Shown: positions 30,319 to 48,296 of the stretch, in pieces
How positions within the stretch are numbered: position 1 is the stretch's first letter
Layout of the letters: every line of letters starts with the position of its first letter
Source of the DNA: a virus
IMG/VR virus record: IMGVR_UViG_3300034071_003115
Coordinates: 15,110-79,109 of that record
DNA length: 64,000 nt
Strand: one strand, 5' to 3'
Program-made: the position numbers and the translations under genes
The notes under the pieces: model-generated
What the model saw: only the letters and a program-made list of their open reading frames with translations
Database searches by the model: none
Told to the model about the DNA's origin: nothing

Positions 30319-30574
30319 TCGGCCTCCCCCCGTTCACCGCAGGCGCGGTGGGCGGGGGGAAGTTCTTTCGCAACCCCCCGGGTGCTGCTGTTCTATCTCT
30401 AACTGGCTGACTATAAGTAAATAACATAACAACATAAGTTCGACAGGCTCGCCTCCGGCGAGTACGACGCCGCTAAAAGAACGCGAATCAACATCTAGGA
30501 GATGATGGAGCAGCCGCGGACGCGCGGTGTGATGAATGCGACATCACAATGGTCTAGCAGAAAGGTGGCTTGGA

Positions 30575-30886
30575 ATGATCAAGACAATCGGCGAAGCGAT
30601 CGAAGCGCTTCGCAAGGTGGTAGCAGAAGCGCAAGACATCTTCGCGGAAACGGAGAATCTTGTCGCGAAAGCAGAAGCGATTCTTTCGCTCGCAACGATC
30701 ACGGGAAGCGCTGGTGATGCGATCAAGGCAAGCGAGAATGTTGGCGCTAGTAGAATGGCGTACCTTCGCGCTCGTCTCGAATTGGAGAAGCAGCGATTCT
30801 ACCTTTCGCAATTGGAGAAGGTAGCAGCCGAGAAGGGTAACGACTGGGAAGGCAACAAGGGAATCCAAATCCAGTCGATTCAGTAA
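30575..30886 (+). CDS. Coiled-coil hypothetical protein (array A)
   Basis: AAAGGTGG RBS, hairpin after stop. Confidence 0.65.
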   Translation: MIKTIGEAIEALRKVVAEAQDIFAETENLVAKAEAILSLATITGSAGDAIKASENVGASRMAYLRARLELEKQRFYLSQLEKVAAEKGNDWEGNKGIQIQSIQ

Positions 30887-31121
30887 GGACTTCCCCCTCA
30901 CCGCGGACGCGCGGTGAGGGGGATGGTTCTGTCGCGGCCCCCCGTGCTGCTGTTAGATGTGTAACCCACAAGAGATATATAAGTAACAATATATAAGTAA
31001 TAAGTTCGATAGACACGCCTCCGGCGCGTACTAGCTGAGAAGAAATACCGCGCCGTATCAATAGGGGATGATGTGCCTAGCCCCGATAGCAAGGGCGCTG
31101 CAGCAATAGGGGGATACGCAA

Positions 31122-31352
31122 ATGGGCAAGCGGATCAACCGCAAGCAAGCGATAGACCGCATCAAGGAGCGTCTACCGTTTGTTTCGCACACGGGAAATT
31201 TCCGCGGCGAATTGATCGGTACGCAATACATGGTGTATTCGTACCGCGTATGCATCGCGGATTTTACCAATGGCGCGTGGAGCATTGACCCCACGCGATG
31301 GAGCGCGACAACATCGCGCCATCAAGGCATCGTGCGCCGCGCGATCGCCTAA
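31122..31352 (+). CDS. Hypothetical protein (array A)
   Basis: AGGGGG RBS, SATTSRHQ motif. Confidence 0.65.
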   Translation: MGKRINRKQAIDRIKERLPFVSHTGNFRGELIGTQYMVYSYRVCIADFTNGAWSIDPTRWSATTSRHQGIVRRAIA

Positions 31353-31625
31353 CGGATCGGCCCGCGTATAAAGGCGGGCGAGGCAAGGGAGCAGGGGGAC
31401 GAGAGAGCCCCCTGCTCGCTCCTTTATTTTTTTCTCTTTTTTTATCCAGAGCCAAGGTGGCGGTCACACTCTCTTGTGGAATATAAGTAACTAAATATAA
31501 GTAATAAGTTCCACGGCCTCGCCTCCGGCGAGTACGACACCAGAAAAAGAATCTCTCCGTATGACTCGGCGATGATGGTGTCAGCGGCGCTGCTGTGGCG
31601 TCGCATCAGTACGGGAGGGAACGGT

Positions 31626-31967
31626 ATGGAATCGCTATTGGCACTGATCGCCACGCTAGGCGGCGTGACGGTACGCGCGCGCGGAATGCGCGCAGTGAAT
31701 CCTGCACGCGGGTACGCAGTAGGGTCGACTGATCGCACTGCGATCCTGCTGCCGCTCGACACCACGGAACGCGCACTACGCACTGCACTATTGGAATGCG
31801 CAGTGCAGTACGGTACGCGTCACGCAGGCGCGTGGGTCGAGGATGGGATGATTCACGTTGACCCCACCACGATCATCAGCAGCAGGCGCGCTGCGCTAGG
31901 CACTGCGAAGGCGAATCGTCAGCGTGCGATCTACGGATTCAAGGAACGCGAAACGATCTACGTCTAG
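31626..31967 (+). CDS. Hypothetical protein (array A)
   Basis: GGAGG RBS; GAW..DG..HVD...N.Q.AIY pattern. Confidence 0.65.
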   Translation: MESLLALIATLGGVTVRARGMRAVNPARGYAVGSTDRTAILLPLDTTERALRTALLECAVQYGTRHAGAWVEDGMIHVDPTTIISSRRAALGTAKANRQRAIYGFKERETIYV

Positions 31968-32224
31968 CAGGCATCCCCCCAGCCGCAAGGTCCCGCGGCT
32001 GGGGGGATTGCTCTATCGCGGCCCCCTCCATCCTGCTGTTAGATGTGTAATCTCCATGTGCAATATAAGTAACATAATTCATATCACGTTCGATGGGCCC
32101 GCCTCCGGCGGACACAGGTCGAGAAAAAGAATCTCGATGTACATCCGTGCGATGCTGGTGGTACCGCCGACGGGTGGGGCGAGCAATGCGAGCTCGCAAT
32201 TGGTTAGTGAACAGGAGGTTCAAC

Positions 32225-32497
32225 ATGCCAAAGGAGTTGAGGTCATTCATGATCCTCGTCTCAAAGGTCGTTGAGGGCGAGATCGCCGTCATCGCAGAGA
32301 CCGAGGAGAAGGCACGCGAGATCGCAATGGATCTTGCGTCGAATCACCCAGACACTTACCTCGACAACGATACGGATGTCGTTGTCGACTCAGTCCGCAG
32401 CGCCAGCGATCACGATCTCGAGTATCTGATCTTCAACGGCGCCAACGGATCTGAGTGGGACGCAAAGAGGCTGATCAAGATGTCCTTCGAGAAGTAG
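32225..32497 (+). CDS. Small acidic protein, DpnD/PcfM-like pattern (array A)
   Basis: AGGAGG RBS; V.AETEEKAREIA motif. Confidence 0.6.
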   Translation: MPKELRSFMILVSKVVEGEIAVIAETEEKAREIAMDLASNHPDTYLDNDTDVVVDSVRSASDHDLEYLIFNGANGSEWDAKRLIKMSFEK

Positions 32498-32774
32498 TAC
32501 CGAGAACCCCAGTCGGCAGCGGACGCGCTGCTGGCTGGGGTTTCTTTTTGCCCTGCACAAAGCTCTACCTCGGCCCCCTGGGGCCTGTAGTTCTATATCT
32601 AACACACAATATGAATATAAATAAGAGCAATAAGTTCCATGGCCACGCCTCCGGCGTGTACGACCTCGGCCTAAAAATCTCAATCAACAGAAACGCGATG
32701 ATGGGGTCAGCGGACGCGGTGCGGCATGAGCCGTTGCGACACCGAAGTGCGCGGTAGCAAAAAGGAGGACAGAG

Positions 32775-33176
32775 ATGTCCGAGAAGGAACGCTCGCAACA
32801 GCGCGCAAACCTCTTCGCTGAAGTCGTCAGTGAAGTCGTGAATCCAGTCGTGGCTCAAGAGGAGCGCACGCACGAATGGGAGTTCATCGCCAGAGACGCT
32901 GACGATGACTACGATGATGTTGCGTGGTCGTTGCACAATGGTTCACGAGAAATCATTGAGCAGTACGCAGCAACAAAGAGCACTGGCGCGGATGCGATGT
33001 ACGTCCTTGAGAAGCCTCACAAGTTTCTTGATGGCGTTGCGGAGTTCATTGAGAACATGGACGTCGCAACTTCAGAGAAGGAGTACATGACTCGCAAGTT
33101 TGGTTATTGGCATTGTATGGAGTGCGACGCTGAAGCGTACTCTATTGAGAGCGGCGACGAGGAACCCTGCGAGTAG
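32775..33176 (+). CDS. Acidic protein with C-terminal W.CxxCDA motif (array A)
   Basis: AAGGAGG RBS; resembles 33825-34184. Confidence 0.7.
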   Translation: MSEKERSQQRANLFAEVVSEVVNPVVAQEERTHEWEFIARDADDDYDDVAWSLHNGSREIIEQYAATKSTGADAMYVLEKPHKFLDGVAEFIENMDVATSEKEYMTRKFGYWHCMECDAEAYSIESGDEEPCE

Positions 33177-33254
33177 GAATCTCGTCGCAGTTCAATCAAA
33201 CGAGGTGCGAGCGAATGCGACGCTCGCACCTCACCATCAGTGAAGGAGAGAATC

Positions 33255-33563
33255 ATGTTCAAGTCAGACGGAAAGAAGATCAAACTCAACGCGTTCGGAA
33301 CGGATTACACGGCGGAGATTCTTGTTGATCAGTATCACAACGGCAACACTGCCGTTGTGTTGTACACAGAGCACGAGCCACTGTGCTCTCTCTCTGTGAA
33401 CACTGAGAAGATTCTTCCAACGGGTCACTTCTACTTGAAGGAGTGGTCAGAGAATCTTGAGATCGCTCACAATCAGAGCGTTCAGGAGATCATCAAGGAG
33501 TGTGGTCAGCATGAGGACTACGCTTCTGGATACGTCGTGGCACGCTGCTTCACGATCTCCTAA
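33255..33563 (+). CDS. DUF4313-like protein (array A)
   Basis: Y.NGN.A..L....EP...LSVN...KEWSEN pattern; AAGGAG RBS. Confidence 0.55.
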   Translation: MFKSDGKKIKLNAFGTDYTAEILVDQYHNGNTAVVLYTEHEPLCSLSVNTEKILPTGHFYLKEWSENLEIAHNQSVQEIIKECGQHEDYASGYVVARCFTIS

Positions 33564-33824
33564 AGTCTAGCCCCCCTTCCACCCAGCGCGGTGGGAGGGG
33601 GGTTAGTTATACCGCGGCACCCTGTGCTGCTGTTAGATCTCTAACCCCCTCACAATGTAAATAAATAAATAAGAGGAATAAGTTCCACGGGCGCGCCTCC
33701 GGCGCGTACGGCCCGAGAAAAAAAATCTCACGGAGTAGAAGCCTGATGATGGGTGCAGCGGCGGCACTACGGCGAAGGAGCCGATGTGATGGTGAAGCGT
33801 CGCAGGTAGCATTGGAGGTTCACG

Positions 33825-35290: not shown

Positions 35291-35511
35291 CGGAGTCCTC
35301 CCCCCGTTCACCGCAAGCGCGGTGGGCGGGGGGAGGCTCTAACGCAGCCCCCTGGGTGCTGCTGTTAGATGTCTAACACACAAGCGATAAGTAAATAACA
35401 TAAATAATATAAACGGGGAATAATATAAGTTCCAACATTACGGGCCGCGGCCCGTAATGCCCCCACAAATGTTATGCCCCCGCAAGTCCCAGACCTGCGG
35501 GGGCTAGTTAG

Positions 35512-35721
35512 TTAGCGGCGGTCCCAGAGGTACTGCGAGCCGTCCCAATCATCCTCGTACATCATCGCGTCCTTGTCGCCAAGCAGCGCAGCAGCCTCGG
35601 CGCGAAGTTCATCGCGGAACTCCTTACCGCAATAGTCGTGGTACCAGACTCCGCTGAACTCGTCCGTCCACTTGCCATCCTCGCTCGTGATTGTTTCGCT
35701 GCACCAATCGCACCTGAACAT
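35512..35721 (-). CDS. Small acidic Zn-binding protein (array B)
   Basis: AAGGAGG RBS; CxxC..HxxC. Confidence 0.7.
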   Translation of the reverse strand: MFRCDWCSETITSEDGKWTDEFSGVWYHDYCGKEFRDELRAEAAALLGDKDAMMYEDDWDGSQYLWDRR

Positions 35722-35900
35722 TTCTGCCTCCTTATTGCTACCACCCCAAGCGGGGTACCCCCATCATAGAGTCGCCATTTCCAATCCGTCAAGCCCCTAG
35801 TTTCGGGAGAGTCTCGTGCGCCGCGGCGCACGAGAGCCGAACAAAAGAAAACGCCAGCGGGGGTAGCATCCCGCTGGCGTGTTGCTAACGATTGTGCGCG

Positions 35901-36185
35901 CTATCCGCGATAGTAGTCCATCTTGTCAATGAACTCATCATCAACATTGACCGAGTTGTATGAAACCGAGAATCCCTTCTTCTCCATCGCCGCGATGAAG
36001 AGAGGCGCATCGCAATCTTCTTCTAGGTAGACGCTACCATTGCGCTCATACGAGCAGTTGCTCACCTTGTCCGCGATACCAAGCGTGCGAAGCATTGCCT
36101 TCTCCGCTACGAGGTATCCGTGCCCTGGCGTGGATACGAACCGCGTCACATAGGTTGCTTGGATACCGAAGTCCCCTCCAAACAT
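35901..36185 (-). CDS. Hypothetical protein with TPGHG...YLEEDCD motif (array B)
   Basis: AAGGAGG RBS before MFGGDF. Confidence 0.7.
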   Translation of the reverse strand: MFGGDFGIQATYVTRFVSTPGHGYLVAEKAMLRTLGIADKVSNCSYERNGSVYLEEDCDAPLFIAAMEKKGFSVSYNSVNVDDEFIDKMDYYRG

Positions 36186-36319
36186 TATTGCCTCCTTATT
36201 GCTACCCTCACGGCAACTGCCGCAAGGCAATACTACGCGAACTCCCGCTTGCTTGTCAAGCGTTCTATTCCACCCTGCCGCGGCAGGGTGGAGCCGACCC
36301 TAATACCTGCCGCTTTCGT

Positions 36320-36649
36320 TTACGCTTCCGCGTTCGCCGTCTGCTCCTGCTCGTTGCGAATCGCTTCGTCCGTGTGATGGCTCGCGATTTCCGTCCAGTT
36401 CACCGACGAGAGGCAACCGCCCACGAAGTCCGCAACTAGTCCCGCGGGCTGCTCGCCGATGAACTCCTCAACCTGCTCGCGAATCCATCGCCCCATCTCA
36501 TAGGCGGAGAAGTTTGGGTCGCTGTCGTTCGTTTCTGCAAAGTAGCGCGCCTGCTCACCAACCTCAAAGAGGTCAAGCAGCCCCTCCTCAATCCAAAGAT
36601 TGGTGACCCAAGTTTCCCAGTTCGTCCAGCCATTGTAGCCTTCGCTCAT
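36320..36649 (-). CDS. Acidic phage protein with YNGWTNWETW motif (array B)
   Basis: AAGGAGG RBS before MSEGYNG. Confidence 0.75.
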   Translation of the reverse strand: MSEGYNGWTNWETWVTNLWIEEGLLDLFEVGEQARYFAETNDSDPNFSAYEMGRWIREQVEEFIGEQPAGLVADFVGGCLSSVNWTEIASHHTDEAIRNEQEQTANAEA

Positions 36650-36816
36650 TTTTGCCTCCTTGCTACCTAGCGGGAAGTCCCCGCCACTGAATACTAAGCG
36701 AACTCCTAGCCGCTCGTCAAGTGTTCTATTCCAACCTGCCGCGGCAGGTTGGAGCTCCACAAAGAAACAACGGCGGGGATTTCTCCCCGCCGTTGTCGTT
36801 CCCGATTTTGTGCGCG

Positions 36817-37224
36817 CTACTTGATTGGGTAGTTGCCCAGTTCTAGCAGCGTCTTGATTTCCGCAGCCTGTTCATCGGTGAGGGCGAGAGTCTTGCCGTC
36901 CTCGTCCTCTGCGGTGAGTACGCAGTTGCCATAGATGTTGTCCGCGTACCCTCCCAGGATTTCGTTGCGGAGTGATGTCGCCGCATGATTGCGGAGGACT
37001 GGCTCGTTGTAGAGACCTTCCTCGTCGCACCAGAGCACGACGCTAGTTGCGCCATACTTGCCAGAAACCGCAACCTCCGTCATGTCCCACTCGCCTACTC
37101 GGTAGAGTTCGGTGAGCGTGTTGCCGTCATCGTTGAAGTCCACGACCTCAACCCAGTTGAACAGCGCGGGCGTTGAAGCACCAACTTCAAGCGCACCGAC
37201 TCCGAACTTGATTGCCTTACCCAT
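36817..37224 (-). CDS. DUF3846-like protein (array B)
   Basis: WCDEEG...N..AT...IYGNCVL pattern. Confidence 0.65.
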   Translation of the reverse strand: MGKAIKFGVGALEVGASTPALFNWVEVVDFNDDGNTLTELYRVGEWDMTEVAVSGKYGATSVVLWCDEEGLYNEPVLRNHAATSLRNEILGGYADNIYGNCVLTAEDEDGKTLALTDEQAAEIKTLLELGNYPIK

Positions 37225-37336
37225 TTTCCGCCTCCTTGCTACTCATCGGGAAGCCCCGACACCAGAATCTTACGCGATAAGTTCCAGACCTGTCAAGGGT
37301 TCAAATCCAAGTCGCCGCGGCGACTTGGAGCCGAAC

Positions 37337-37578
37337 AAAATGATGAGGGTCTGACTGGCACCACACCAACCAGACCCTCATCGGCATTTCGCTGCCTTTG
37401 ACGCTTATCCTCTTGCGAGGAGAGGCTTCACCTCTCGGCTACCTCTTGCGAACGGCATAGGTGTCGGTTAGGCACCCCCACCGCTCGTCCTTATCGTCTC
37501 GGGTAGTTCGTCTACAACTACCAACCAGCCGCAGCCCCATAAGCCCGCCACCTTCACAGCGGCACCAGAGCGGCTCGT
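37337..37578 (-). ncRNA. Putative structured ncRNA 1 (~240 nt)
   Basis: Own TTGACG-N17-TAGAAT promoter and terminator, no SD-led ORF, several hairpins including one with a GCAA tetraloop. Confidence 0.6.
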
Positions 37579-37698
37579 GAGGTGATTCTAAACGAACATC
37601 TTCCAGCCGTCAAGAGTTCTAATCACACGGGCCGCGGCCCGTGTGAGGTGAACAAAAAAGGCGAGGTTTCCCTCGCCTTTCTTGACCAGACCCCCCGA

Positions 37699-37980
37699 TT
37701 ACTTGACTTCGTAGACCTCGCCGCCAAAGCGAACCGCCGTGATTGCGTCAAGCGCAACCGAACGATACGCCTTCTTGGTGATGTCGTAGACGAAGATGAG
37801 GTCTTTCGCCGCCGCGTCATACGCAGCCTCACCGCCTTTGAGATGCTTCTTGACTCCGAGTCGCGCCGTCATCTTGCGAACCTCGCCCGTCGTGCGCTTC
37901 ACGAAGTCCACGCCGAAGATTGCGCCGTTGCTGTTGCGAATCATTTCGGCTGCCTCTGCCAACTTGATTGCCTTGCTCAT
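37699..37980 (-). CDS. SH3-fold / WYL-like (DUF2693-like) protein (array B)
   Basis: V.FVKRTTGEVRKM...VYD....YRSV.LD.I. Confidence 0.65.
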   Translation of the reverse strand: MSKAIKLAEAAEMIRNSNGAIFGVDFVKRTTGEVRKMTARLGVKKHLKGGEAAYDAAAKDLIFVYDITKKAYRSVALDAITAVRFGGEVYEVK

Positions 37981-38128
37981 TTCTGCCTCCTTGCTACTCT
38001 GCCCCAATCGGGGTACTCCGATTCTAAGCGAACACCTAGCCAGCCGTCAAGGGTTCTATTCCAAGTGGCCGCCGCCACTTGGAGCCGAACAAAAATGCCG
38101 CCCGAAGGCGGCATCTTTGCTTTCTGGA

Positions 38129-38467
38129 CTACTCGGCTTGGTGGAGCGCGATGATCTGAGCCATCTCGCGCTCGGCTGCCCACTCCTCTGAGAAGGCAAC
38201 GAAGTCAATGAATCCATCGTTGCGCCAATGGACGACGATGTTGCCGAACCTGTCGTAAGTCCCATCAAGTTCAGTTGAGATCATCTCATCTGGCTGAGCG
38301 AAACCTTCCAACATATCGCCGTAGATTTCAGCGAACTTTAGATCGTATCCGTCAAGACGAGGAGCGACCTTTGGATCAACGAACCAATCGCCCCTGCAAC
38401 TGCCCTGTGAGCATTGAAACTTTGTGAAGTCGCCCTTTGTGAGTGAGACTGCCAGAGCCTTGAACAT
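38129..38467 (-). CDS. Hypothetical protein (array B)
   Basis: GAGGAGG RBS before MFKALA. Confidence 0.7.
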   Translation of the reverse strand: MFKALAVSLTKGDFTKFQCSQGSCRGDWFVDPKVAPRLDGYDLKFAEIYGDMLEGFAQPDEMISTELDGTYDRFGNIVVHWRNDGFIDFVAFSEEWAAEREMAQIIALHQAE

Positions 38468-38577
38468 TTGAGCCTCCTCTGCTACCGCCCCAAGTGGGGT
38501 GAACCCATTGTAATCAAACTTCTCGCAAGGTGTCAAGAGGTTCTAGTGGAACAGGCCGCCGCCTGTTCCACCTGAAC

Positions 38578-38805
38578 AAAATACAAGACCCTCGGAGCCG
38601 TCGCCCCGAGGGTCTTGCTTCGGATTTGTTGTCTAGGGACTAATCACTTTCCCTAGACTCCTTTTCCTTCCGCTCCGCCGATCCATTGGCACCTAGCGGT
38701 CATCGTCCTTTGCGTCTCTATACCCGCATTTTTTGGCTGCGGCATCTGCTCGCTCGTCCAGAGTCTCACCTAGTCGGTGTCGCTTCATCTAGAATCGCTT
38801 CCGAC
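38578..38805 (-). ncRNA. Putative structured ncRNA 2 (~230 nt)
   Basis: Own TTGACA-N18-GAGAAT promoter and terminator; only a 31-codon ORF without clear SD; shares a motif with ncRNA 1. Confidence 0.5.
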
Positions 38806-38898
38806 AAGTGGATTCTCCCACACCCGAAACAGACCTGTCAAGCCCCTATTTCAGTTCCATTCCAATCACCCGCCGGTGATTGGAGCCGAACTATTTAT

Positions 38899-39240
38899 TT
38901 AGTTTGCTGGTGCTTCTGAGGAAGCGATTGCGTCGCTCAACGAGTAGAAGACAGGGTGTTCGTATCCGTTGCCTAGTTCTGATTTGTGAATCAACTCAAA
39001 CCACGAGTTATTTATCCACTCAAATCGCTCAATGTCTTTCTCCGCCTCTGCGAGTTTCTCGTCGGAGTCTATGCCGACATCTTCCAAGTCCCTCGTCGTG
39101 CGAAGATGGACAAACTGCCCATCATCTCGCTTGTACCTAATGTTCATCTCGCCACACCTGAACACCAGATAGTCGCCGAGGTCTTTGATCGCCTCGTCGT
39201 CTTCGTGATAGGTGTAGAAGGCTGCGTCTTCCCTGCTCAT
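38899..39240 (-). CDS. Acidic hypothetical protein (array B)
   Basis: Start overlaps upstream stop. Confidence 0.65.
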   Translation of the reverse strand: MSREDAAFYTYHEDDEAIKDLGDYLVFRCGEMNIRYKRDDGQFVHLRTTRDLEDVGIDSDEKLAEAEKDIERFEWINNSWFELIHKSELGNGYEHPVFYSLSDAIASSEAPAN

Positions 39241-39461
39241 ACACAACCCAGAACGGAGAATCCGTCTGCCGCGATTCCTTCCAGAATCGGTTCGGCATAG
39301 CGTGGCTCAACGACAAGAGCCTGACCCCAATAGGTCGCCTCCGAGTCCACCCTATCGCGCAGCCACGAGCGAGCCTCTGCTGTGAGTGGGGTGATGAGGG
39401 TAATCGTTCCCTCGCTTACGAACGAGAAGTCCGCGAAGTCGGACTTATCTCCCTTTCCCAT
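39237..39461 (-). CDS. Hypothetical protein (array B)
   Basis: GAGGAGG RBS. Confidence 0.7.
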   Translation of the reverse strand: MGKGDKSDFADFSFVSEGTITLITPLTAEARSWLRDRVDSEATYWGQALVVEPRYAEPILEGIAADGFSVLGCV

Positions 39462-39653
39462 TTCTTGCCTCCTCTTTCTGCGGCACTACTTCGCCGCAAG
39501 ACAAGGGTACAACAGCGACCACTAGGTCGTCAAGAGGTTCTAGTCAAACGGGCCGCGGCCCGTTTGAGGCGAACAAAAAAGAGGGATCAAGTTGGCTGCG
39601 ATCAACTTGATCCCTCTGTTGGGGCGTAGGGGAGGCTCTATCCTACGCCGTAG

Positions 39654-39920
39654 TCATAGTGCCGCGGCTTGTGGCTTGCGGCAGTCGTATCCTAGCAGGC
39701 AACTGAACGGCTCGTGATCAACGGGATCAATCGCCCACTCAAGGCAAGTCCCACAAGATTCACCGCACCAGTTTACTTCGTCCCAGTCAAAGACAGGGTG
39801 AAGATTATTGCCCTCGTTATCCTTCGTGTCTTCGCTGTCAAGCGTATCGCCGAAGCGTGCCTTCGCGCAGGCTAGGCAATGAACGGAAGCGTCAAACTGC
39901 CAAGCGATCGGTGTTGACAT
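39654..39920 (-). CDS. Cys-rich acidic protein (array B)
   Basis: AAGGAGG RBS; two CxxC. Confidence 0.7.
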   Translation of the reverse strand: MSTPIAWQFDASVHCLACAKARFGDTLDSEDTKDNEGNNLHPVFDWDEVNWCGESCGTCLEWAIDPVDHEPFSCLLGYDCRKPQAAAL

Positions 39921-40041
39921 ACATTCCTCCTTATTCGCAGCGTCGGTACTTCCGACAATCGGATTGTCCCATACCTCGGGCTGTCCGTCAAATGTTCCAG
40001 CCCAAGCACCCGCGGGTGCTTGGGGGCGAACTATTTATTGC

Positions 40042-40275
40042 TCAATACACGCCAGTCCCGCCGCAGCCGCACGCTCCGTCTTGGCACATCACGCCCTCGT
40101 CAAGCAACATTGCGCAGCCGTACTTATCTGATCGGTGCTCCTCGCACTTCACGCAGTATCGGGAGGGCAGCCCAGAGGAGTTGTTGTCCGCCCAATACGC
40201 AAACGGCTCCTCACAGAAATCACAGGATACTACTCCCTGCGGTTCGCCGACTGGAATCTCAAAGTGGTCGCTCAT
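40042..40275 (-). CDS. Cys-rich small protein (array B)
   Basis: Coupled to upstream gene. Confidence 0.6.
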   Translation of the reverse strand: MSDHFEIPVGEPQGVVSCDFCEEPFAYWADNNSSGLPSRYCVKCEEHRSDKYGCAMLLDEGVMCQDGACGCGGTGVY

Positions 40276-40517
40276 TACAGCGCACCATAGCAGTCATCGC
40301 AGAGATTACGAACTTCATCATAGGCGTATTCTGCGCCGTTCCAGCCATAGGAGAACTTTCGCCCCTTGCCCTCAAATGGGCAACGCTTATCAAGTCGCAG
40401 CACTTCCTCGCCCTCGCACTCCTGAACGAGCGGGTGGTCGTGCGTTTCACACTCGCATTGGTCGTAGTAGCAATCTCCGTTGCCACACATCGTCATTGAG
40501 CCTTGTAGGTACGCCAT
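40275..40517 (-). CDS. Cys-rich acidic small protein (array B)
   Basis: AAGGAGG RBS. Confidence 0.65.
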   Translation of the reverse strand: MAYLQGSMTMCGNGDCYYDQCECETHDHPLVQECEGEEVLRLDKRCPFEGKGRKFSYGWNGAEYAYDEVRNLCDDCYGAL

Positions 40518-40636
40518 TGTTGCCTCCTTGCTCGCAGCACCCCAAGCGGGGTAGCCCTATTGTAAATCCACTTGCTTCTATCCGTCAAGAGGTTCTATCC
40601 CAGATGGCCGCGGCCATCTGGGGGAGAACTATTTAT

Positions 40637-40837
40637 TTACTTCCAGTCGCTTGGGATTTCACGCCAAGTCAATCCCCCGTTATCGCAGTCTGCCGAGTAG
40701 ATGTCGCACTCTTGACACCACACCACATAGCAGTCCTCTAAATGCTTGTCGCAGTCAGACCAAAGCCAATGCTCTTCCCGCCTATCCATCGGGCAGTCGC
40801 AGGGCTTTCGTTTAGATGTGGGGAATAGGCGGCTCAC
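40637..40837 (-). CDS. Cys-rich small protein (array B)
   Basis: GTG start overlapping upstream stop. Confidence 0.55.
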   Translation of the reverse strand: MSRLFPTSKRKPCDCPMDRREEHWLWSDCDKHLEDCYVVWCQECDIYSADCDNGGLTWREIPSDWK

Positions 40838-41283
40838 AATACCTCACACCCTTTCAGGTCAGCGCACTTCTCCAAGAACGCCTGCCACTCTCGGATAAGA
40901 CCAACCCACGAAGTCGCCTCCTCGCTTGGGAACGCCTTCGTGTGGTCGTCCATAAACGGATTGTTTGCGATTATGGCAATCATTTCGTTTTTGATTTGCT
41001 CATCGCTCATAGACGCGATTTTCTCGGAGAGTGCGCGGCACTCATAGTCCTTGATGACCTCGCCGCTATTATCAAGTAGATTCTCGTTCACCTCGTCAAA
41101 GCCAATCGCATCGTGGAACTCACGCAACATCGGCATACCCCAGATGTTCAGACGGAAGTAGAGCGTATCGGGAGCCTTCTCGTCATACGAGCCGTCCTCG
41201 TTTACCCACATTGAGCGGTGCTTCTTTGCGTGTTCAGCCGCAGCCTTTCGGTCTGGTAGCAGCGAGTAGATGTCGTATCCCAT
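40834..41283 (-). CDS. Hypothetical protein (array B)
   Basis: AAGGAGG RBS; MGYD...YFRLNIWG.P motif. Confidence 0.7.
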   Translation of the reverse strand: MGYDIYSLLPDRKAAAEHAKKHRSMWVNEDGSYDEKAPDTLYFRLNIWGMPMLREFHDAIGFDEVNENLLDNSGEVIKDYECRALSEKIASMSDEQIKNEMIAIIANNPFMDDHTKAFPSEEATSWVGLIREWQAFLEKCADLKGCEVL

Positions 41284-41434
41284 TTCCAGCCTCCTTTATT
41301 ACAAACCCCAAGCGGGGCAACACCATTGTAAGCAGATTTGCCGTCAGCCGTCAAGGGGTTCTAACCCAAATGGCCGCGGCCATTTGGGGCTGAACAAAAA
41401 ACAAGCCCCCCGAAGGGGGCTTGTTTTTCTTGGG

Positions 41435-41512
41435 CTACTTTCTTACTTCGCTAACGATTGCGTATGTAAACGAAGCGAGCAGAAGAAGAAAGCCCCAAAA
41501 CAACTCAATCAT
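41435..41512 (-). CDS. 25-aa hydrophobic peptide
   Basis: MIELFWGFLLLLASFTYAIVSEVRK*, ATGA-coupled to DUF932 stop, terminator follows. Confidence 0.45.
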   Translation of the reverse strand: MIELFWGFLLLLASFTYAIVSEVRK

Positions 41513-42474
41513 CGGGAAAGCGCGAGGACTGCCTCGCGCTTTGTCTTCGCTGCGAAACCTGTGTCTAGCATTACGCTAGAAGCACGAGCGTCCGAAGCAG
41601 AAGAGCGTACCCCGCCGCGATACGAAACGCCATAGTCCAGATACTCGGCGATGGCGTTGTATACGCCCCACTTCGTATCGCGCAAACCTTCTAGATTCTC
41701 CGCGTTATTGAGAATCGCGATTGTTGCCTTCGCTCGCTCCGACATTACTTCCTTCCCACGCTTCTCCGACTCCGACAGCGGGAAGATTCTCGTGATGACG
41801 CGGAATGCCTCATCGCGATCCATCTTCTCCGCGATCATACGCGAGCCGATGACCGAAAACTCCTCAACCGCGCTTGCGGCAAGTCCGAGTGCGCGCTTCG
41901 CCTCTGCGACTTTCTCCTCAATCTTCGCGGTGTGGCGAAGTGTGAACGACATCTTCGCGCTGCCCAACGCTGCGTTGAGCGTGTTCATACAAACAACGCG
42001 GATTGGCGTAATCATCGCTTTGAGTGGGAACAAGCCGTTGTGCCCATTGGCAATCACAAGGTAGGTGTTGGTATCACCATTGTCGCCCTTGATCTTGATC
42101 CTCTCTGGAATCTCCAACGCGGAGAAGACGATCTGCCCACCTTTGAGTGAACCCGCCGACTCGTAGCGTGCGCCCTCGTCAAGCAACGCGTCCGCGAACG
42201 ACATCATCTCGTCGTTCTGGATTGGCGTGTAGCGATCACCGACAACGCCCAAGACCGAGCCATCGGTGCTGCGAACATTTGCGCGCTTGCCGTTGATCGC
42301 GATTTGCTTGCCGTCAAGCGTCGTGAAGATCGGCTGCTGCTTTACTGCCCAATCAAGACCAGCCGCAACGATCATCTCCGCGCTCGTTGTGAGTCCATTA
42401 TTGGCAACGCCGAGTTTGTGCCACGGCGCGCCCCTTTCCGCGTTGTATGCCATCGTTTCTACTTCGTGTGCCAT
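41509..42474 (-). CDS. DUF932 family protein
   Basis: MAHEVE...PWH.LG...AGLDW.V, LGVVG.RY.PIQN, TPIRVVCMNTL, T.WG.YNA. Confidence 0.85.
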   Translation of the reverse strand: MAHEVETMAYNAERGAPWHKLGVANNGLTTSAEMIVAAGLDWAVKQQPIFTTLDGKQIAINGKRANVRSTDGSVLGVVGDRYTPIQNDEMMSFADALLDEGARYESAGSLKGGQIVFSALEIPERIKIKGDNGDTNTYLVIANGHNGLFPLKAMITPIRVVCMNTLNAALGSAKMSFTLRHTAKIEEKVAEAKRALGLAASAVEEFSVIGSRMIAEKMDRDEAFRVITRIFPLSESEKRGKEVMSERAKATIAILNNAENLEGLRDTKWGVYNAIAEYLDYGVSYRGGVRSSASDARASSVMLDTGFAAKTKREAVLALSR

Positions 42475-42592
42475 TTGCGTCCTCCTTTTTTCTCAACGGC
42501 AACTGCCGCTAGATGGATTGTCGCATACTTCCCGAGATTGCGTCAAGTTCTAGTCCAAAGGGCCGCGGCCCTTTGGAGCCGAACTATTATCT

Positions 42593-42877
42593 TTATGCGT
42601 GTCGGTGCGCTTCTACAAAGTCGCAGTTCGGGATAAAGCACCAGCCTTCATCTCGCGCTTCCGCGTCCGACATAAATGGCGGGTGAAACTCACACTCGCA
42701 GGGAGCGCAGTCCAAGCAGTAAACCAGATAACCCTCTGGCACACCGCTCTCATACTGATCAAAGTCAAGAACATCAAAGCGCGTGTTTGGCTCGCCGTTC
42801 CACGCACCGATGACTTTCTCATCGGGGTAAACAAGCGGAGCCGAGCAGCGAGTACACGCGTGAAGTTCACCGCTCAT
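42593..42877 (-). CDS. Cys-rich protein (array B)
   Basis: GGAGGAG RBS before MSGELHAC. Confidence 0.6.
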   Translation of the reverse strand: MSGELHACTRCSAPLVYPDEKVIGAWNGEPNTRFDVLDFDQYESGVPEGYLVYCLDCAPCECEFHPPFMSDAEARDEGWCFIPNCDFVEAHRHA

Positions 42878-43043
42878 CGGTAATCTCCTCCGCGCTCCAA
42901 ACAATAATCTCTGGCGTAGTGTCCCAAGGTGCTGGCTCCTCTGCCAACTCAAACGCCTTGCCCTCTGCCTCGCCCTGATCCAAGGCTTCCACCTCAAACT
43001 CGCGATAGCCAGTGTGTTGTAGAACAACGATCCACTTACTCAT
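42867..43043 (-). CDS. Small acidic DpnD/PcfM-like protein (array B)
   Basis: EVEALDQGEAEGKA motif; GGAGG RBS. Confidence 0.55.
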   Translation of the reverse strand: MSKWIVVLQHTGYREFEVEALDQGEAEGKAFELAEEPAPWDTTPEIIVWSAEEITDER

Positions 43044-43353
43044 TGTCGCCCTCCCACTCTGCGCCCTGCTCAATCAAGGAGAAGAATCCATCGTTCGGAT
43101 TCTTGTCTGGGTGTACGCTCGCAACCGCCTGAACGAATCGCAGCGAGCAAGAGTTCTCGTACCACTCCATAATCGTACTCAACATTTCGTTAGGGTTGGA
43201 ATCTTTTGCCTCAATGAGCGTCGTGTAGCCATACTCCTTCATCTGCTCCACCTGCGCGTCGTCAAGCAGAACATAGATTTTGTGGCAATCGTCAAAGCCG
43301 ATACCCTTTGCGATTTCCACCATCTCCTCAACCTTGTCCCAACTTACTGCCAT
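43036..43353 (-). CDS. Acidic hypothetical protein (array B)
   Basis: GAGGAGG RBS; FDDCHKIY...SCSLRF. Confidence 0.7.
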   Translation of the reverse strand: MAVSWDKVEEMVEIAKGIGFDDCHKIYVLLDDAQVEQMKEYGYTTLIEAKDSNPNEMLSTIMEWYENSCSLRFVQAVASVHPDKNPNDGFFSLIEQGAEWEGDNE

Positions 43354-43515
43354 TTCAGCCTCCTCACTACAACGGCAAGTGCCGTCTAGTGGATTGTCGC
43401 ATACCCAAAGCCCAGCCGTCAAGCGTTCTACCCCAAGGAGCCGCCGCTCCTTGGGCAAGAACAAAAACAAACGAGCCGCCCGAAGGCGGCCCGCTTGATT
43501 ACTTGATCTCGAAGA

Positions 43516-44061
43516 TCAGACTGGCTGATTCTCTGGCAGCGCAGCCTCTTCCTTCGTAATCTTTCCCGCTCGGATTGCGTCGCGCAGTTCGATGCTCTCT
43601 TTGTGTGTGATCGCATCGAGATCAGGGTTGTGCTTCTCTGCGTATTTCAGTTCTTTCAGACCCTCATGCTCCATGCGCTCCATAACGCGCTTGCGCCAAG
43701 CACCAGCGGTTTCGTATGAGGCGTTGGTTTCCAGTCCGATGTGCTGCTCCAAGTCTGCTCTGGTAATCATGCGCGGTTCCCACTTGATGTTTCCGTCGTC
43801 TTCATACCCAGAAAACACAACACTCTTGTCGATCCATGCGACCGAGTAAGCGAGCGCCATGCGCTTCTCCCACTCGTCAAGATTCTCTGGCGTGATCTCG
43901 TTGAGCCCAATGCTCATCGTGTGCCAGATAATCGAGTTGGTGATCGGATGAAGGTACTCCTCACCGCGAGTCGTGCCGTCATGGGCGCTGCTCCTTGTTG
44001 CCGTTCGGTAGCAAACATCGTCCGCGTTCTTTACATTTTTTACTGACCAGTTGAGCGGCAT
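43516..44061 (-). CDS. Hypothetical protein (array B)
   Basis: AAGGAGG RBS. Confidence 0.7.
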   Translation of the reverse strand: MPLNWSVKNVKNADDVCYRTATRSSAHDGTTRGEEYLHPITNSIIWHTMSIGLNEITPENLDEWEKRMALAYSVAWIDKSVVFSGYEDDGNIKWEPRMITRADLEQHIGLETNASYETAGAWRKRVMERMEHEGLKELKYAEKHNPDLDAITHKESIELRDAIRAGKITKEEAALPENQPV

Positions 44062-44070
44062 ACAGCCTCC

Positions 44071-44298
44071 TTACTTCTTCTTGGTGGCGCGCTTTGCGCC
44101 AGACTCACGAATCGCACGCTCCAATCGCTCGGTGCGCTTATCAGCGTGATGGCTGCTGATGACGAAGAACGCCCAGATCGTTGCTGGCAGCCAGCCGATC
44201 AGCGTGAGTTGGAGAACAAGCGCGATGATTGCCTGAACCCATTTGCCAGCAGCCAGAAACCCAAACGCTGGAAAGAGCAACGCCAATAGGTACTTCAT
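44071..44298 (-). CDS. YqaE/Pmp3-like small membrane protein
   Basis: Y.LA..FP.......GK..QA.I.L.LQ.T.IGW.PA..WA. Confidence 0.75.
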   Translation of the reverse strand: MKYLLALLFPAFGFLAAGKWVQAIIALVLQLTLIGWLPATIWAFFVISSHHADKRTERLERAIRESGAKRATKKK

Positions 44299-44492
44299 TT
44301 TCTACCTCCTTACTTTCTATCGGGAATCCCCGACCACTTGATTTTCTCACGGGTCATAGCGACCTGTCAAATGGTCTACCCCAGACACCGGCGGGTGTCT
44401 GGGCGCGAACAATAATAAATAAGCCCCGCCATTTCTGGCGAGGCTTATTCACACTCGGGCTAACGCTGTGATTTCATCAGCCCTGTATCTAA

Positions 44493-45305
44493 TCAGCCCC
44501 CGACAACGCCGCCGAAGTGTTTATCACAGAACTTCTCAAACTCGTTCATTGGTACGGCATCATAATCACGCTCGCCGTACTCAATCTCGTCGTCCTCGCC
44601 CTTGTGCCACGCTTCGTCTGGCAAATCATCTGCGTTGTAATCACTTACGCTTACAACCTCTCCGTTCTCGTACACAATCTCACCTGCGAAACCCATACCG
44701 CCTTCGCAGTATCGGTGAGCGATTGCGAGCGTTGGAAACTGCTTGGCGAGCGCGGCAATCACAGGCTCCGCAGGAGCCCAAGCCGTATCAAAGTTGTACG
44801 AAACGATTCCGTCAATCTTGCTATCGTCATCGCCGCGGTCGCTCCATACTTCACCGCAGTTCCACTTGGAGCCCCAGTTAGAAACATTCCAGTTGTACCA
44901 CCAGTCTGGGTGCGATGAGTTCTGCTTGACCTTGTGAATCGGACAGATTGGCGTACCGCCAAACATCAGGGCGGTATCATCTTGGATTGTGCCGTTGCTT
45001 GATTCTTCCTTCACAACTGGAATACCATCAACGCACCACTCGCCCTGCTTTCGCATTACATCTTTGCCGTCGTTATCGGTGTACGAAACGATTTCTGGTA
45101 GGTCATCTCGCTCAACCCACACCTGCTTACAGCCGCATTGGAAATCGTTCTGACCCTCGTTGATTGCGTAGAACTTGCTATCGGGTGGCGGCACAATCTT
45201 CGCAAAGTCGAAGTCGCCCTCGCTGCCCTTCACAAACTCAACCAACCTTGCGACCTCTGCTTCGTCGCCGCTAATGTCTACTTGGTTCACACACCAGTTA
45301 GGCAT
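44493..45305 (-). CDS. DUF1281 / YubB ferredoxin-like protein
   Basis: MPNWC.N, WY.W...NWGSKWN, FDTAWAP, Y.EGG..FAG. Confidence 0.75.
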   Translation of the reverse strand: MPNWCVNQVDISGDEAEVARLVEFVKGSEGDFDFAKIVPPPDSKFYAINEGQNDFQCGCKQVWVERDDLPEIVSYTDNDGKDVMRKQGEWCVDGIPVVKEESSNGTIQDDTALMFGGTPICPIHKVKQNSSHPDWWYNWNVSNWGSKWNCGEVWSDRGDDDSKIDGIVSYNFDTAWAPAEPVIAALAKQFPTLAIAHRYCEGGMGFAGEIVYENGEVVSVSDYNADDLPDEAWHKGEDDEIEYGERDYDAVPMNEFEKFCDKHFGGVVGG

Positions 45306-45447
45306 CTTTCTTTCCTCCTTGTATCACAGACAGGGAAGCCCCTGCCCCTAGATTGTAAGGCAACTTCTAGCCATCGGTCAAGTTGCCAGCCAGAGTTCTA
45401 TCTCAACTGGCGGCGGCCAGTTGAGGGCGAACTAAAATTTTGCGTTT

Positions 45448-45780
45448 TTAGCGATCGAAGGACATTGCGCTAACTCCATCAGGGGTCATAACAACATGTC
45501 CACCCTCTACGAAGATTCGACCACCGTCGTTCGCTTCATCATCAGATGAAATAACAAGGGAATAACGCTTGCCGCCCTGCTCTACGAATAACACTGGCAT
45601 GTAAGGGTCAGCACCGCCATCGCCTAACACCGTGCCCCCAATAATCGTTGCGCCAATAAGCGGCTCAACCATTTCTGTCCGAAGGTAGTGCCGCTCAATC
45701 TGGTCGCGGCTCAAGCCGAGTCGCTCCTTGACCAACTGGTCTCTGCTGCTCAATAACTGAGCAATCGTTTCCACTGCCAT
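45448..45780 (-). CDS. Hypothetical protein (first gene of array B)
   Basis: AAGGAGG RBS; promoter TTGACA-N18-TACAAT at 45820-45849. Confidence 0.7.
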   Translation of the reverse strand: MAVETIAQLLSSRDQLVKERLGLSRDQIERHYLRTEMVEPLIGATIIGGTVLGDGGADPYMPVLFVEQGGKRYSLVISSDDEANDGGRIFVEGGHVVMTPDGVSAMSFDR

Positions 45781-45963
45781 AACTTCCTCCTTATGCCTAC
45801 GGCTAACTGCCGTAGGGGGATTGTAAGCGATCGCTATAACTTGTGTCAAGCCCTCGGGTTCGACCCTCGCTTCTGCGGAAGCTCGGCTACCCCAAAAAAA
45901 ACATCTTGTCAAGTCCTCCCCCAAAACGACCCCCGAATAATAACTGAACTTCGGTAGGCCAAC

Positions 45964-48220: not shown

Positions 48221-48296
48221 TGGTAGGGACGCCTGGACTCGAACCAGGAACCGCTGAGATATAAGCTCAGTGCTCTAACCGTTGAGCTACGTCCCC
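48221..48296 (-). tRNA. tRNA-Ile, anticodon UAU
   Basis: GGGGACG acceptor, D arm, CTGAG-CTTATAT-CTCAG anticodon arm, GGTTCGAGTCC T arm, encoded CCA. Confidence 0.9.

Follow-up and report, generated by a model that had tools for sequence, protein, structure and literature searches.

A 38 bp palindrome with free but strictly paired arms at the ends of early-gene cassettes in an uncultured freshwater phage

In an early-gene array of an uncultured freshwater tailed phage, every cassette, including the last, carries a 38 bp palindrome at its 3′ end. The genome of this phage is a 79 kb contig encoding a tape-measure protein. The window, i.e., the whole 64,000 nt stretch analysed here, carries this array, and the same arrays are found in six related uncultured phage genomes. 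The arms of the palindrome are free in sequence, yet they stay strictly Watson-Crick paired across a divergence near silent-site saturation, which nearby terminator hairpins do not. Comparison of copies supports a site that would be set by structure and not by sequence. The reading tentatively preferred here, at somewhat under an even chance, is a regulatory cassette boundary similar to the PeSL elements of T4-type phages, with an additional, purely structural DNA module that is attC-like in concept but not an integron component.

The repeat and its copies

A scan with fixed geometry (4+3+10+4+10+3+4) yields exactly 17 copies in the 64 kb window, all of 38 bp, in agreement with the number and invariant length given in an earlier note on this DNA; no further copies are found in the 79 kb genome. 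By chance alone, a 64 kb sequence should contain about 0.09 such hairpins. Exact GTTC...GAAC boxes are present in 12 copies, as against 1.3 expected from shuffles, and 14 was reached by none of 100 shuffles. The arms of each window copy pair at all ten positions (170 Watson-Crick pairs of 170, no G·T), as had been described, and the centres CGCG, CGCC and GGCG conform to the proposed SGCS motif. The spacer triplets had been called consistently mismatched. This holds for 63 of 81 copies from five genomes, in which no Watson-Crick pair is possible, but 16 copies can form one pair and 2 can form two. The predicted single-stranded DNA fold reproduces the described shape at −11 to −15 kcal/mol. The outer GTTC/GAAC boxes, however, show no covariation and their departures are never compensated, so that on alignment they look more like a pair of independent sequence motifs than an established helix.

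All copies are on the minus strand and are given here by plus-strand coordinates and arm sequence. Palindrome 1 (45395..45432, arm CTCAACTGGC) has the minus-strand centre CGCC, with the −35 sequence 13 nt further on. Then follow palindrome 2 (44373..44410, CCCAGACACC) with GACC as its promoter-side box, palindrome 3 (43425..43462, CCCAAGGAGC) and palindrome 4 (42547..42584, TCCAAAGGGC), where TTGAC directly adjoins GAAC and whose orthologue in strains L138 and L140 displays a compensated change of G·C to T·A. Palindromes 5 (41358..41395, CCCAAATGGC), 6 (40592..40629, CCCAGATGGC), 7 (39994..40031, CCCAAGCACC) and 8 (39537..39574, TCAAACGGGC) come next. The −35 sequence is 12 nt further on from palindrome 9 (38854..38891, TCCAATCACC), and palindrome 10 (38540..38577, TGGAACAGGC) has the usual base block TCCAA on the opposite arm. 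Palindromes 11 (38053..38090, TCCAAGTGGC), 12 (37616..37653, TCACACGGGC) and 13 (37299..37336, TCCAAGTCGC) precede palindrome 14 (36723..36760, TCCAACCTGC), whose terminator-side box has decayed to GTGG, and palindrome 15 (36262..36299, TCCACCCTGC), which has GGTC in that place. Palindrome 16 (35805..35842, TCTCGTGCGC) has the promoter-side box TCCC, again with the −35 12 nt further on. Palindrome 17 (35429..35466, CATTACGGGC) is the final copy, and behind it there is no promoter, just an AT-rich repeat zone in which both gene arms converge.

Cassette layout

The array (35429..45924, minus strand) consists of about 17 self-contained units. Each has a TTGAC-N18-(T/G)AnnAT promoter, a 5′UTR hairpin, an AAGGAGG Shine-Dalgarno sequence, one to three ORFs, mostly a terminator (hairpin plus T-tract) and the 38 bp palindrome. 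The promoter of the first cassette (TTGACA-N18-TACAAT), its 5′UTR hairpin and its Shine-Dalgarno sequence are at 45781..45860 (minus strand), and no palindrome of this kind (class B) is found upstream of that promoter. A junction read along the coding strand consists of a stop codon or T-tract, followed by GTTC, 3 nt, arm, 4 nt centre, arm, 3 nt, GAAC and TTGAC. Most units have the palindrome downstream of a hairpin and T-tract; 6 of the 17 have no separate terminator, and there the palindrome directly follows the stop codon. The other gene arm carries a second, non-sigma70 promoter class (class A units) with a hairpin centred ∼58 nt upstream.

The layout raises the possibility, rather an unlikely one, of a cis-acting transcription element at the DNA level: a supercoil-responsive cruciform, or the site of a structure-specific protein, between terminator and promoter. 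It might insulate strong early units by supercoil buffering or a read-through block, or a phage factor might use it to shut the early promoters off jointly. Such a role is consistent with a position that is always between T-tract and −35 (present at 60 of 64 junctions), with promoter spacers of 18 bp, with a constant orientation relative to transcription and with purifying selection on all copies. The gap from GAAC to TTGAC is 0, 2 or 3 nt, or rarely one helical turn more (12–14 nt), and never 4–11 nt in the 64 junctions, but the longer class stems from two or three independent junctions only. A two-strand cruciform would also require strict Watson-Crick pairing because a G·T on one strand is an A·C on the other; a GC-rich centre, however, is unfavourable to supercoil-driven extrusion. 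The promoter class of the other arm likewise has its upstream hairpin. Against this role, no protein emerged as a candidate for binding the site, palindrome 17 lacks a downstream promoter and the first promoter functions without a palindrome.

Relatives bear on the same point. Terminators are found at most junctions in the palindrome clade, whereas the short junctions of relatives G012 and G015 have few, which is in keeping with a transcriptional role. More distant relatives, on the other hand, have homologous early-gene arrays without palindromes, and the palindrome is therefore taken as a clade-specific addition to an older array. Their promoters are of a similar sigma70 type, some with 5′UTR hairpins like those of the window phage, and their gene order varies too; thus neither promoter function nor reshuffling requires the palindrome.

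Pairing and change between strains

A covariation check on the aligned copies, as the earlier note had proposed, shows that all ten stem pairs covary, which bears out the claim of a structure-defined site: pairing in the helix 8–17/22–31 reaches 99.9%, and each of the 10 pairs varies on both sides, a result matched by none of 500 shuffles. Among the 810 arm pairs of 81 copies in five genomes, 808 are Watson-Crick and one is G·T, while neighbouring terminators in the arrays have G·U in 78 of 812 pairs (9.6%; Fisher p = 4e-23). This difference supports the view, already put forward, that the palindrome would act as DNA rather than as RNA. The loops differ as well, TTCG or GAAA in terminators versus CGCG-type centres in palindromes. 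Orthologous palindromes (12 pairs, 26% four-fold-site divergence) display seven compensated and no uncompensated arm changes.

The 4 nt centre is hypermutable. Two strains with a background divergence of 2.3% differ at 9 of 34 outer positions of the centre (p = 5e-8), but at only 2 of 340 arm positions and 0 of 136 box positions. Near-identical strains often show the reverse complement of the centre, and exact reversals (CGCC/GGCG or CGAG/CTCG) occur in several strain pairs. Judged from these alignments, hypermutability and reversals would fit hairpin dynamics at the DNA level. The G005/G018 lineage differs in that its centre is TCCG in a single orientation (10:0), which may point to a reader specific for one strand.

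It seems very improbable that the palindrome acts as an RNA hairpin in transcripts that read through or lack a terminator, whether as an RNase III-type processing site like those between T7 early genes, as a 3′ stabilizer or as a back-up terminator. In the six units without their own terminator the palindrome comes directly after the stop and therefore would be transcribed. RNase III sites of T7 consist of a stem with an internal loop, a shape the palindrome resembles, and the TCCG of one lineage, closed by C-G and kept in its orientation, equals a UNCG-type RNA tetraloop. However, the near-absence of wobble pairs contrasts with the terminators of the same arrays, and a wobble intermediate is impossible for the transversion pairs that make up three of nine compensated changes. 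Moreover, centre orientation is about balanced in the lineage of the window phage (23 GGCG versus 19 CGCC), a canonical terminator is upstream of most copies, no T-tract follows the stem and an Rfam search gave no match.

Centre reversals demonstrate template switching, and substitution in the arm pairs reaches about half the silent-site rate, a fast pace for compensation by selection alone. Both points would suit a functionless selfish or neutral palindrome that was spread by gene conversion and owes its perfection to hairpin-templated (quasi-palindrome) correction as the DNA replicates, as would its restriction to one clade when homologous arrays manage without it. This origin is nevertheless very improbable: terminator hairpins in this DNA are about as large yet have not been homogenised, no half-decayed copies were found in the arrays, and lineages near silent-site saturation still share length, position, orientation, a purine-rich upper 5′ arm and the base block yCCAA.

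Cassette exchange and DNA enzymes

Between close strains, divergence varies from one cassette to the next and forms a mosaic, in which consecutive cassettes diverge by, e.g., 0.2%, 16.6% and 0%, and cassette order varies among genomes. For a single exchange event (n = 1) the limits can be placed to within a few bases. The cassette following palindrome 12 is swapped in strains G001, L138 and L140, and the replaced segment starts 9 nt past GAAC and extends as far as position 24 in the palindrome that follows. In G001, palindrome 13 differs at positions 5, 15 and 24 and therefore moved along with the replaced upstream cassette. Both crossovers of this sole sharply resolved replacement are inside the right arm/GAAC/−35 segment, and the palindrome moves with its upstream gene.

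The earlier note saw no integrase in the window and suggested a search of the remaining genome. Tyrosine recombinases, serine recombinases and Y1 HUH domains were looked for in the window, the whole genome and four relatives (five genomes, two of them 100% complete by CheckV), and none was found. A PD-(D/E)XK exonuclease, an SSB and a probable Rad52/Sak-like annealing protein are encoded; two proteins with a ParB_N domain and several nucleases of unassigned role are present as well.

Such unassigned proteins leave some room, though little, for a dedicated, unrecognised structure-specific recombination or nicking enzyme, phage- or host-coded, that moves promoter-bearing cassettes; the palindrome would then be a true functional analogue of attC × attC recombination sites or of HUH-type hairpin sites. 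One structured, sequence-variable site per cassette 3′ end, the confinement of both crossovers to one short segment and the singly oriented TCCG centre are consistent with this, and the asymmetric unpaired flanks could define polarity. Yet the known enzyme classes are missing from all five genomes, the clade-specific genes offer no clear candidate, the box polarity is the reverse of attC and extrahelical bases are missing from the stems. The pattern is also absent from 185,579 prokaryote genomes; there is therefore no host array.

Relation to known systems

The nearest described system is the promoter/stem-loop cassette of T4-type myoviruses, the PeSL and PmSL elements (Arbiol et al., 2010, PMC2839356; Comeau et al., 2014, PMC4122927), for which shuffling and mini-circles have been described. 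The earlier note had not weighed these elements. Common to both are a repeated near-consensus sigma70 early promoter and a stem-loop around small accessory ORFs in a plastic region, whole-cassette insertion, deletion and replacement between close relatives, a second class on a non-sigma70 promoter (PmSLs there, class A units here) and exchange ascribed to the phage's own recombination system. The PeSL stem-loop is a terminator, however, whereas the window phage has a separate terminator and an extra, non-terminator palindrome, constant in length and strictly Watson-Crick paired, with arms free in sequence and a hypermutable centre. The window phage, with its tape-measure protein, is not T4-related.

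The comparison with attC made in the earlier note stands in part. Recognition based on the fold, one site per cassette 3′ end, a one-directional array and the succession of paired boxes, unpaired spacers, variable stem and loop are shared, although box pairing in the palindrome lacks covariation support. Integron membership was considered and rejected: neither IntI nor any other tyrosine recombinase, nor a serine recombinase or Y1 HUH enzyme, is found in the five genomes, the polarity is opposite, as noted before (GTTC...GAAC versus ...AAC...GTT...), the stems are perfect and of fixed length, the cassettes bring their own promoters and usually terminators, and the palindrome is found in a lytic-type phage and not in bacterial chromosomes.

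REP/BIME sequences with RAYT and the ends of IS200/IS605 are likewise short extragenic palindromes past gene ends; they share with the present palindrome a conserved 5′ tetranucleotide and stem changes that compensate each other. However, no Y1 HUH accompanies the present palindrome, the 185,579 prokaryote genomes lack it, and REP stems are sequence-conserved within a genome and tolerate mismatches. The hairpin promoters of the N4 virion RNA polymerase are, like the palindromes, small, GC-rich early-region hairpins that act as DNA structure. They have a 5–7 bp stem and a 3 nt loop and are themselves the promoter, whereas the palindrome has a 10 bp stem and a 4 nt loop and is followed by an ordinary −35/−10; the class A hairpins are closer to them. 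No virion RNA polymerase was found in the window phage, the 2794-amino-acid ORF matching tape-measure families. T7 RNase III sites also punctuate each early gene with a hairpin containing an internal loop, but they work in the RNA of one long transcript and contain wobble pairs, unlike the palindromes, and the window genes each have their own promoter and mostly their own terminator.

A possible joint between cassettes

Some observations weigh against a PeSL-like boundary with a structural module. Distant relatives reshuffle genes and run sigma70-type promoters without it, the exchange evidence is one event at few-base resolution, and the G005/G018 lineage keeps a single TCCG orientation. An evolvability benefit alone should not hold nearly all resident copies perfect, and an immediate cis function or a correcting mechanism is therefore indicated.

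According to the PeSL-like reading, the 38 bp unit would be a DNA-level inverted repeat that closes each autonomous early cassette, and its function seems to be that of folded DNA at cassette borders, in the form of a single-stranded DNA hairpin or a cruciform. Exchange would proceed by general phage recombination, with the exonuclease, the probable annealing protein and SSB, or alternatively by template switching at a stalled hairpin; an integron-type integrase would play no part. Together with the conserved GAAC-TTGAC linker, the palindrome would represent a joint at which early cassettes are kept separate and can be exchanged.

Geometry and occurrence of the palindrome

The class B element is a palindrome of 38 bp with a fixed 4+3+10+4+10+3+4 layout. 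A scan with this layout returns exactly the 17 copies of constant length that the earlier note had counted, and the rest of the genome (G000) holds no further copy. In each of the 17, the two arms are Watson-Crick paired at 10 of 10 positions, and exact GTTC...GAAC termini are found in 12 of them, with 1.3 expected. When folded as single-stranded DNA the copies adopt the shape first described, at -11 to -15 kcal/mol.

The five genomes compared contribute 81 copies with 51 distinct arms, and 808 of 810 arm pairs are Watson-Crick, the other two being one G.T pair and one mismatch. The alignment of copies, proposed earlier as a check for covariation, reveals a 10-bp helix that is 99.9% paired and in which both sides change at every pair; neither shuffled sequences nor slid registers come near its pairing and covariation. 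With ten covarying stem pairs, the description of the element as a site defined by structure rather than by sequence is borne out. Half-decayed, intermediate palindromes are absent, and thus the number of copies is not an artefact of the search method.

The terminal boxes differ in this respect. They had been taken to form a stem of their own, but the outer pairing shows no covariation, and GAAC is unchanged where the box on the terminator side has decayed (to GTTA, GTGG, GGTC and others). As this decay is uncompensated, the boxes are read as two separate regions and not as a demonstrated stem: GTT(C) would end the T-tract region of the terminator, and GAAC would belong to the region upstream of the promoter.

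Pattern scans detect the same arrays in the virus records 3300012017_001157 (G001, a near-identical strain), 3300032270_001445 (G002), 3300016263_001265 (G003), 3300044675_007199 (G004), 3300037189_023468 (G005) and 3300032245_001466 (G018). They are also carried by a dozen metagenome contigs, and the motif-bearing contigs all belong to these same phage lineages. None of 185,579 prokaryote genomes matches the consensus pattern, and a loose pattern scan of viral contigs yields mostly chance matches.

A probable fold at the DNA level

The terminator hairpins of the same arrays, of which 56 were folded to give 812 predicted pairs, provide an internal control. G.U pairs number 78 of 812 in the terminators versus 1 of 810 in the palindromes (p = 4e-23), a contrast that supports the proposal that the fold functions in DNA rather than RNA. 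The terminators carry RNA-type tetraloops, unlike the palindromes, whose centre is CGCG or one step removed from it, with the orientations about equally common (CGCG in 34 of the 81 copies, GGCG in 23, CGCC in 19, TGCG in 3 and CGCA in 2). Transversion pairs, which have no wobble intermediate, make up three of nine compensated changes between orthologues.

That the palindrome might itself be an intrinsic terminator was considered and rejected, since no U-tract directly follows the stem. None of the copies precedes a T-tract; after the stem come NTA-GAAC and the -35 box, and most palindromes lie past a canonical terminator. A search of Rfam 15 at gathering score matches only two tRNAs in the window and nothing in the palindrome; sub-threshold matches within the array are look-alikes of leaders or small RNAs.

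Organization of the cassettes

The array genes are on the minus strand. Read along that strand, a unit consists of the ORF stop, a terminator, the palindrome, a promoter, a 5'UTR hairpin, AAGGAGG and ATG. About two thirds of the units have the terminator, a GC-rich hairpin whose loop is TTCG or GAAA, followed by a T-tract. The palindrome comprises GTTC, three G/C-rich nucleotides, a 10-bp arm, the 4-nt centre, the second arm, three nucleotides that are usually NTA, and GAAC; 0, 2 or 3 nt (12-14 nt in a few units) separate GAAC from the TTGAC of the promoter, which has the form TTGAC, N17-18, (T/G)AnnAT. A promoter with a Shine-Dalgarno sequence is present at all 16 window junctions that have a downstream gene and, in four genomes together, at 60 of 64 junctions, the other four being array-terminal palindromes. 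The first promoter of the array has no palindrome upstream and the last palindrome (35429-35466) no promoter after it, so the rule is one palindrome per cassette, at its 3' end.

The genes carried are small and include DUF932, DUF3846, DUF7249, DUF1281-like and Pmp3-like members. DUF932, DUF3846 and DUF1281-like genes are common on conjugative elements and in the early regions of phages.

The 5'UTR hairpins that follow each -10 box (35500-45900, minus strand) belong to a few conserved types (CCCCGCTTGGGG, CGGCAGTTGCCG, CGGGGCTTCCCG), shared by all lineages, also by distant relatives without the palindrome. They may stabilise RNA or serve as a site for a shared regulator. Ahead of the first promoter of the array, at 45860-45915 on the minus strand, an imperfect hairpin (GCCGAGCTTC-CGCA-GAAGCGAGGG) precedes TCGAACC. 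G001 and G002 retain this hairpin, with a compensated change at one pair; its GGGTCGAACCC part resembles a tRNA T-arm, and ARAGORN detects no tRNA there.

The converging gene arm has cassettes of a second type, class A (28890-33800, plus strand), also found in G001 and G004. Their layout is ATAA-GTTC, 5-7 nt, a GC stem of 5-7 bp with a TCC loop, and TAC; GATGATG follows about 47 nt past TAC, and there is no -35 box. On the template strand the loop reads GGA, a DNA triloop of the cGNAg type, and the hairpins recall the N4 hairpin promoters. As in class B, some 58 nt separate the hairpin centre from the presumed start downstream. Class A looks like a counterpart of PmSL, one of the promoter/stem-loop cassette types of T4-type myoviruses (PMC2839356; PMC4122927).

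Evolution of the arms and the centre

Four-fold site identity between G000 and G002-G004 is only 0.49-0.60, and arms at orthologous junctions are identical at 6.6 of 10 positions versus 5.7 of 10 for unrelated pairs. Given such silent-site divergence, the near-random arm identity represents drift at roughly the silent rate with pairing retained. The notion of hypervariable arms was therefore abandoned, since arm identity only mirrors near-saturated silent sites. In the less diverged pair G005 and G018 (four-fold identity 0.74), the arms of 12 orthologous palindromes show seven compensated changes and no uncompensated one. That all resident copies pair so strictly points to an immediate function in cis or to an active correcting process.

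The centre behaves differently. Across conserved segments, 2.3% of the aligned sites distinguish G000 from G001; in their palindromes, differences are at 9 of 34 outer centre positions (p = 5e-8), 2 of 340 arm positions and none of 136 box positions. Of six centres that changed, three are exactly reverse-complemented (CGCC/GGCG). This reversal is found again between G004 and L143, L145 and L146, and G002 and L142 (L numbers denote strain contigs), and a CGAG/CTCG reversal between G005 and G018. Inversion of the centre of a perfect palindrome is the product expected of intrastrand template switching; it may also be an artefact of assembly. Avoidance of restriction sites as the cause of asymmetric centres was rejected, as CCGCGG is seen 28 times outside the elements with 28.7 expected.

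In the sister lineage formed by G005 (L150) and G018 (L341-L345), the centre is mostly TCCG and has one orientation in 10 of 10 cases, in contrast to the freely reversing CGCC/GGCG of the window's lineage; this constancy hints at a strand-specific reader. The TCCAA/TTGGA base block is on the arm opposite to its usual one in two palindromes, at positions 10578-10615 of L135 (G003) and at window positions 38540-38577 (TTGGAGCAGC, TGGAACAGGC), and looks as if it had been inverted in place.

Exchange of cassettes

Divergence between close strains is a mosaic by cassette, with consecutive cassettes differing, for example, by 0.2%, 16.6% and 0%. One minus-strand cassette (37337-37615) is swapped for an unrelated one in G001, L138 and L140. 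The replacement begins 9 nt past GAAC, just beyond TTGACG, continues through the next terminator and stops at position 24 of the next palindrome. These limits place both crossovers in the short conserved segment of right arm, GAAC and -35 box, and indicate that the palindrome travelled with the upstream gene. Only this close-strain replacement is informative on flank inheritance; diverged genomes give no signal of palindrome inheritance with the upstream versus the downstream flank, because their silent sites are saturated. Cassette order varies among G000, G002 and G003.

The 37337-37615 cassette has a full promoter and terminator without an ORF led by a Shine-Dalgarno sequence, is kept in G002, G003 and G004, and has no match in Rfam. 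It is probably an early non-coding RNA.

The phage genome and its recombination functions

The G000 contig is a 79,109 bp IMG/VR virus record with a completeness rating of 94%, of which the window covers positions 15110-79109. It encodes a portal, a major head protein, a large terminase and tail proteins, as well as a PD-(D/E)XK exonuclease, SSB, a DnaC-like loader, ThyX, MazG, glycosyltransferases and two proteins with ParB_N domains. A 2794-aa ORF, considered as a candidate virion RNA polymerase of the N4 type, has its matches in tape-measure families and is assigned as the tape-measure protein. PF00940 (RNA polymerase) has no match, in a weak search whose control likewise had none. No close cultured phage was found, TerL being at most 28% identical to that of any cultured phage, and plasmids and cultured phages have no similar DNA. 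From sample codes, the habitat of the lineage is presumably freshwater.

Two tRNA genes are present on the minus strand, tRNA-Ile (anticodon TAT, 48221-48296) and tRNA-Arg (anticodon TCT, 54589-54664). The whole genome has no GCCGGC, GCTAGC or GGATCC, palindromic hexamers with 7-10 copies expected, and a single CCTAGG; this depletion suggests that the phage evades restriction enzymes of its host. At the convergence of the two gene arms (35365-35428) there is an AT-rich zone with TTATATTATT-type repeats, kept in G001 and G004, which could be an origin or terminus.

The earlier observation that the window has no integrase extends to the whole genome and four relatives, two of them 100% complete by CheckV: neither a tyrosine recombinase (PF00589, with a control that gave matches in 14 of 14 genomes) nor a serine recombinase was detected, and the Y1 HUH transposase (PF01797) has no match in the same five phage genomes. 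A different set of enzymes is encoded at 20482-21950 on the plus strand, where a gene for a 199-aa protein with a predicted Rad52/Sak-like fold (precomputed family PF27148) precedes that of the PD-(D/E)XK exonuclease. The best structural matches of the model are all Rad52-family annealing proteins (phage 80alpha Sak, Mgm101 and RAD52) and are weak (E = 7e-3, mean pLDDT 69). On this modelled fold, the putative annealing protein, the exonuclease and SSB would make a general recombination module. Members of the 199-aa family are encoded widely among contigs of uncultured phages that are 80-90 kb in size.

Clade-specific genes were rejected as a source of a dedicated partner enzyme, the list being long and noisy. 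The best candidate, a 401-aa protein termed 'exonuclease' in PHROGs, was also dismissed; database sources give it as a predicted or calcineurin-like phosphoesterase, and it is widespread in unrelated phage contigs.

Relatives without the palindrome

Four relatives, G009, G012, G015 and G017 (completeness 94-100%, annealing protein 46-61% identical), have no GAAC-TTGAC junctions and only 0-6 perfect hairpins with stems of at least 9 bp per whole genome. They nevertheless have homologues of many array genes (45-61% identity for the DUF1281-like gene, 62-74% for a 94-aa gene). Junctions inspected in G009, G012 and G015 have similar TTGAC-N17-19 promoters, several followed by 5'UTR hairpins of the window's kind; the junctions of G015 are short and few have a terminator.

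Homologous arrays of this kind imply that the palindrome was added to an older cassette array, apparently with terminators gained at the same time, and that promoters and reshuffling as such do not need it. This makes any one functional account less certain and leaves both an insulating role and a selfish origin as candidates. Since some homologous arrays have the palindrome and others do not, a comparison of the two can test the question.

Comparison with known systems

A resemblance to integron attC sites had been proposed. The logic stands, in that a structure-conserved, sequence-variable site closes each cassette at its 3' end. Membership of the integrons does not: no counterpart is seen to their recombinase, to the polarity of their boxes, to the imperfections of their stems or to their promoterless cassettes. 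Integrons have IntI and attI beside the array, whereas the phage has no tyrosine recombinase. The attC box consensus (R''/R') is RYYYAAC...GTTRRRY, and here the boxes read GTTC...GAAC on both strands; attC has extrahelical bases in the L stem, but the stems here are perfect at 10 of 10 pairs. Integron cassettes are mostly promoterless and expressed from Pc; the phage cassettes have their own promoters.

The PeSL cassettes are the nearest known system and are similar in two ways: a repeated sigma70-like early promoter and stem-loop terminator surround small ORFs, and cassettes are inserted, deleted or replaced individually among close relatives by crossovers inside the repeated unit, as resolved here for one replacement. 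PeSL cassettes are also reported to form mini-circles of cassette DNA during infection. They are carried by T4-type myoviruses, whereas the phage studied here has a tape-measure protein and no close cultured relative; their stem-loop is itself the terminator, from which the palindrome is distinct. REP/RAYT and IS200/IS605 elements depend on a Y1 HUH transposase, absent here, and are dispersed in bacterial chromosomes, in which no match to the palindrome pattern was found. N4 hairpin promoters have a 5-7-bp stem and a 3-nt loop, unlike the 10-bp stem and 4-nt loop of the palindrome.

The best-supported reading is that the palindrome is a DNA-level hairpin or cruciform module that closes PeSL-like, autonomous cassettes of early genes at the 3' end and lies at the joint of their exchange. 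Its function could be in exchange, in transcriptional or topological insulation, or with a dedicated enzyme. An improbable extension is that the palindromes are substrates of a structure-specific DNA transaction that mobilises promoter-bearing anti-host cassettes between phages, integron-like but of independent viral origin and without a tyrosine recombinase. Candidate transactions would be the nicking of folded single-stranded DNA, or strand exchange or programmed template switching on it.

Few DNA elements are conserved as folds and not as sequences, and those known (attC, HUH hairpin sites, N4 promoters and plasmid single-strand promoters) each revealed a distinct DNA transaction. The palindrome borders every early accessory gene in a widespread, presumably freshwater, phage lineage. 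Should it direct the exchange or insulation of these cassettes, it would account for the way in which phages maintain an interchangeable stock of genes for host takeover and counter-defence, and would provide a small, naturally occurring part for the construction of insulated gene arrays.
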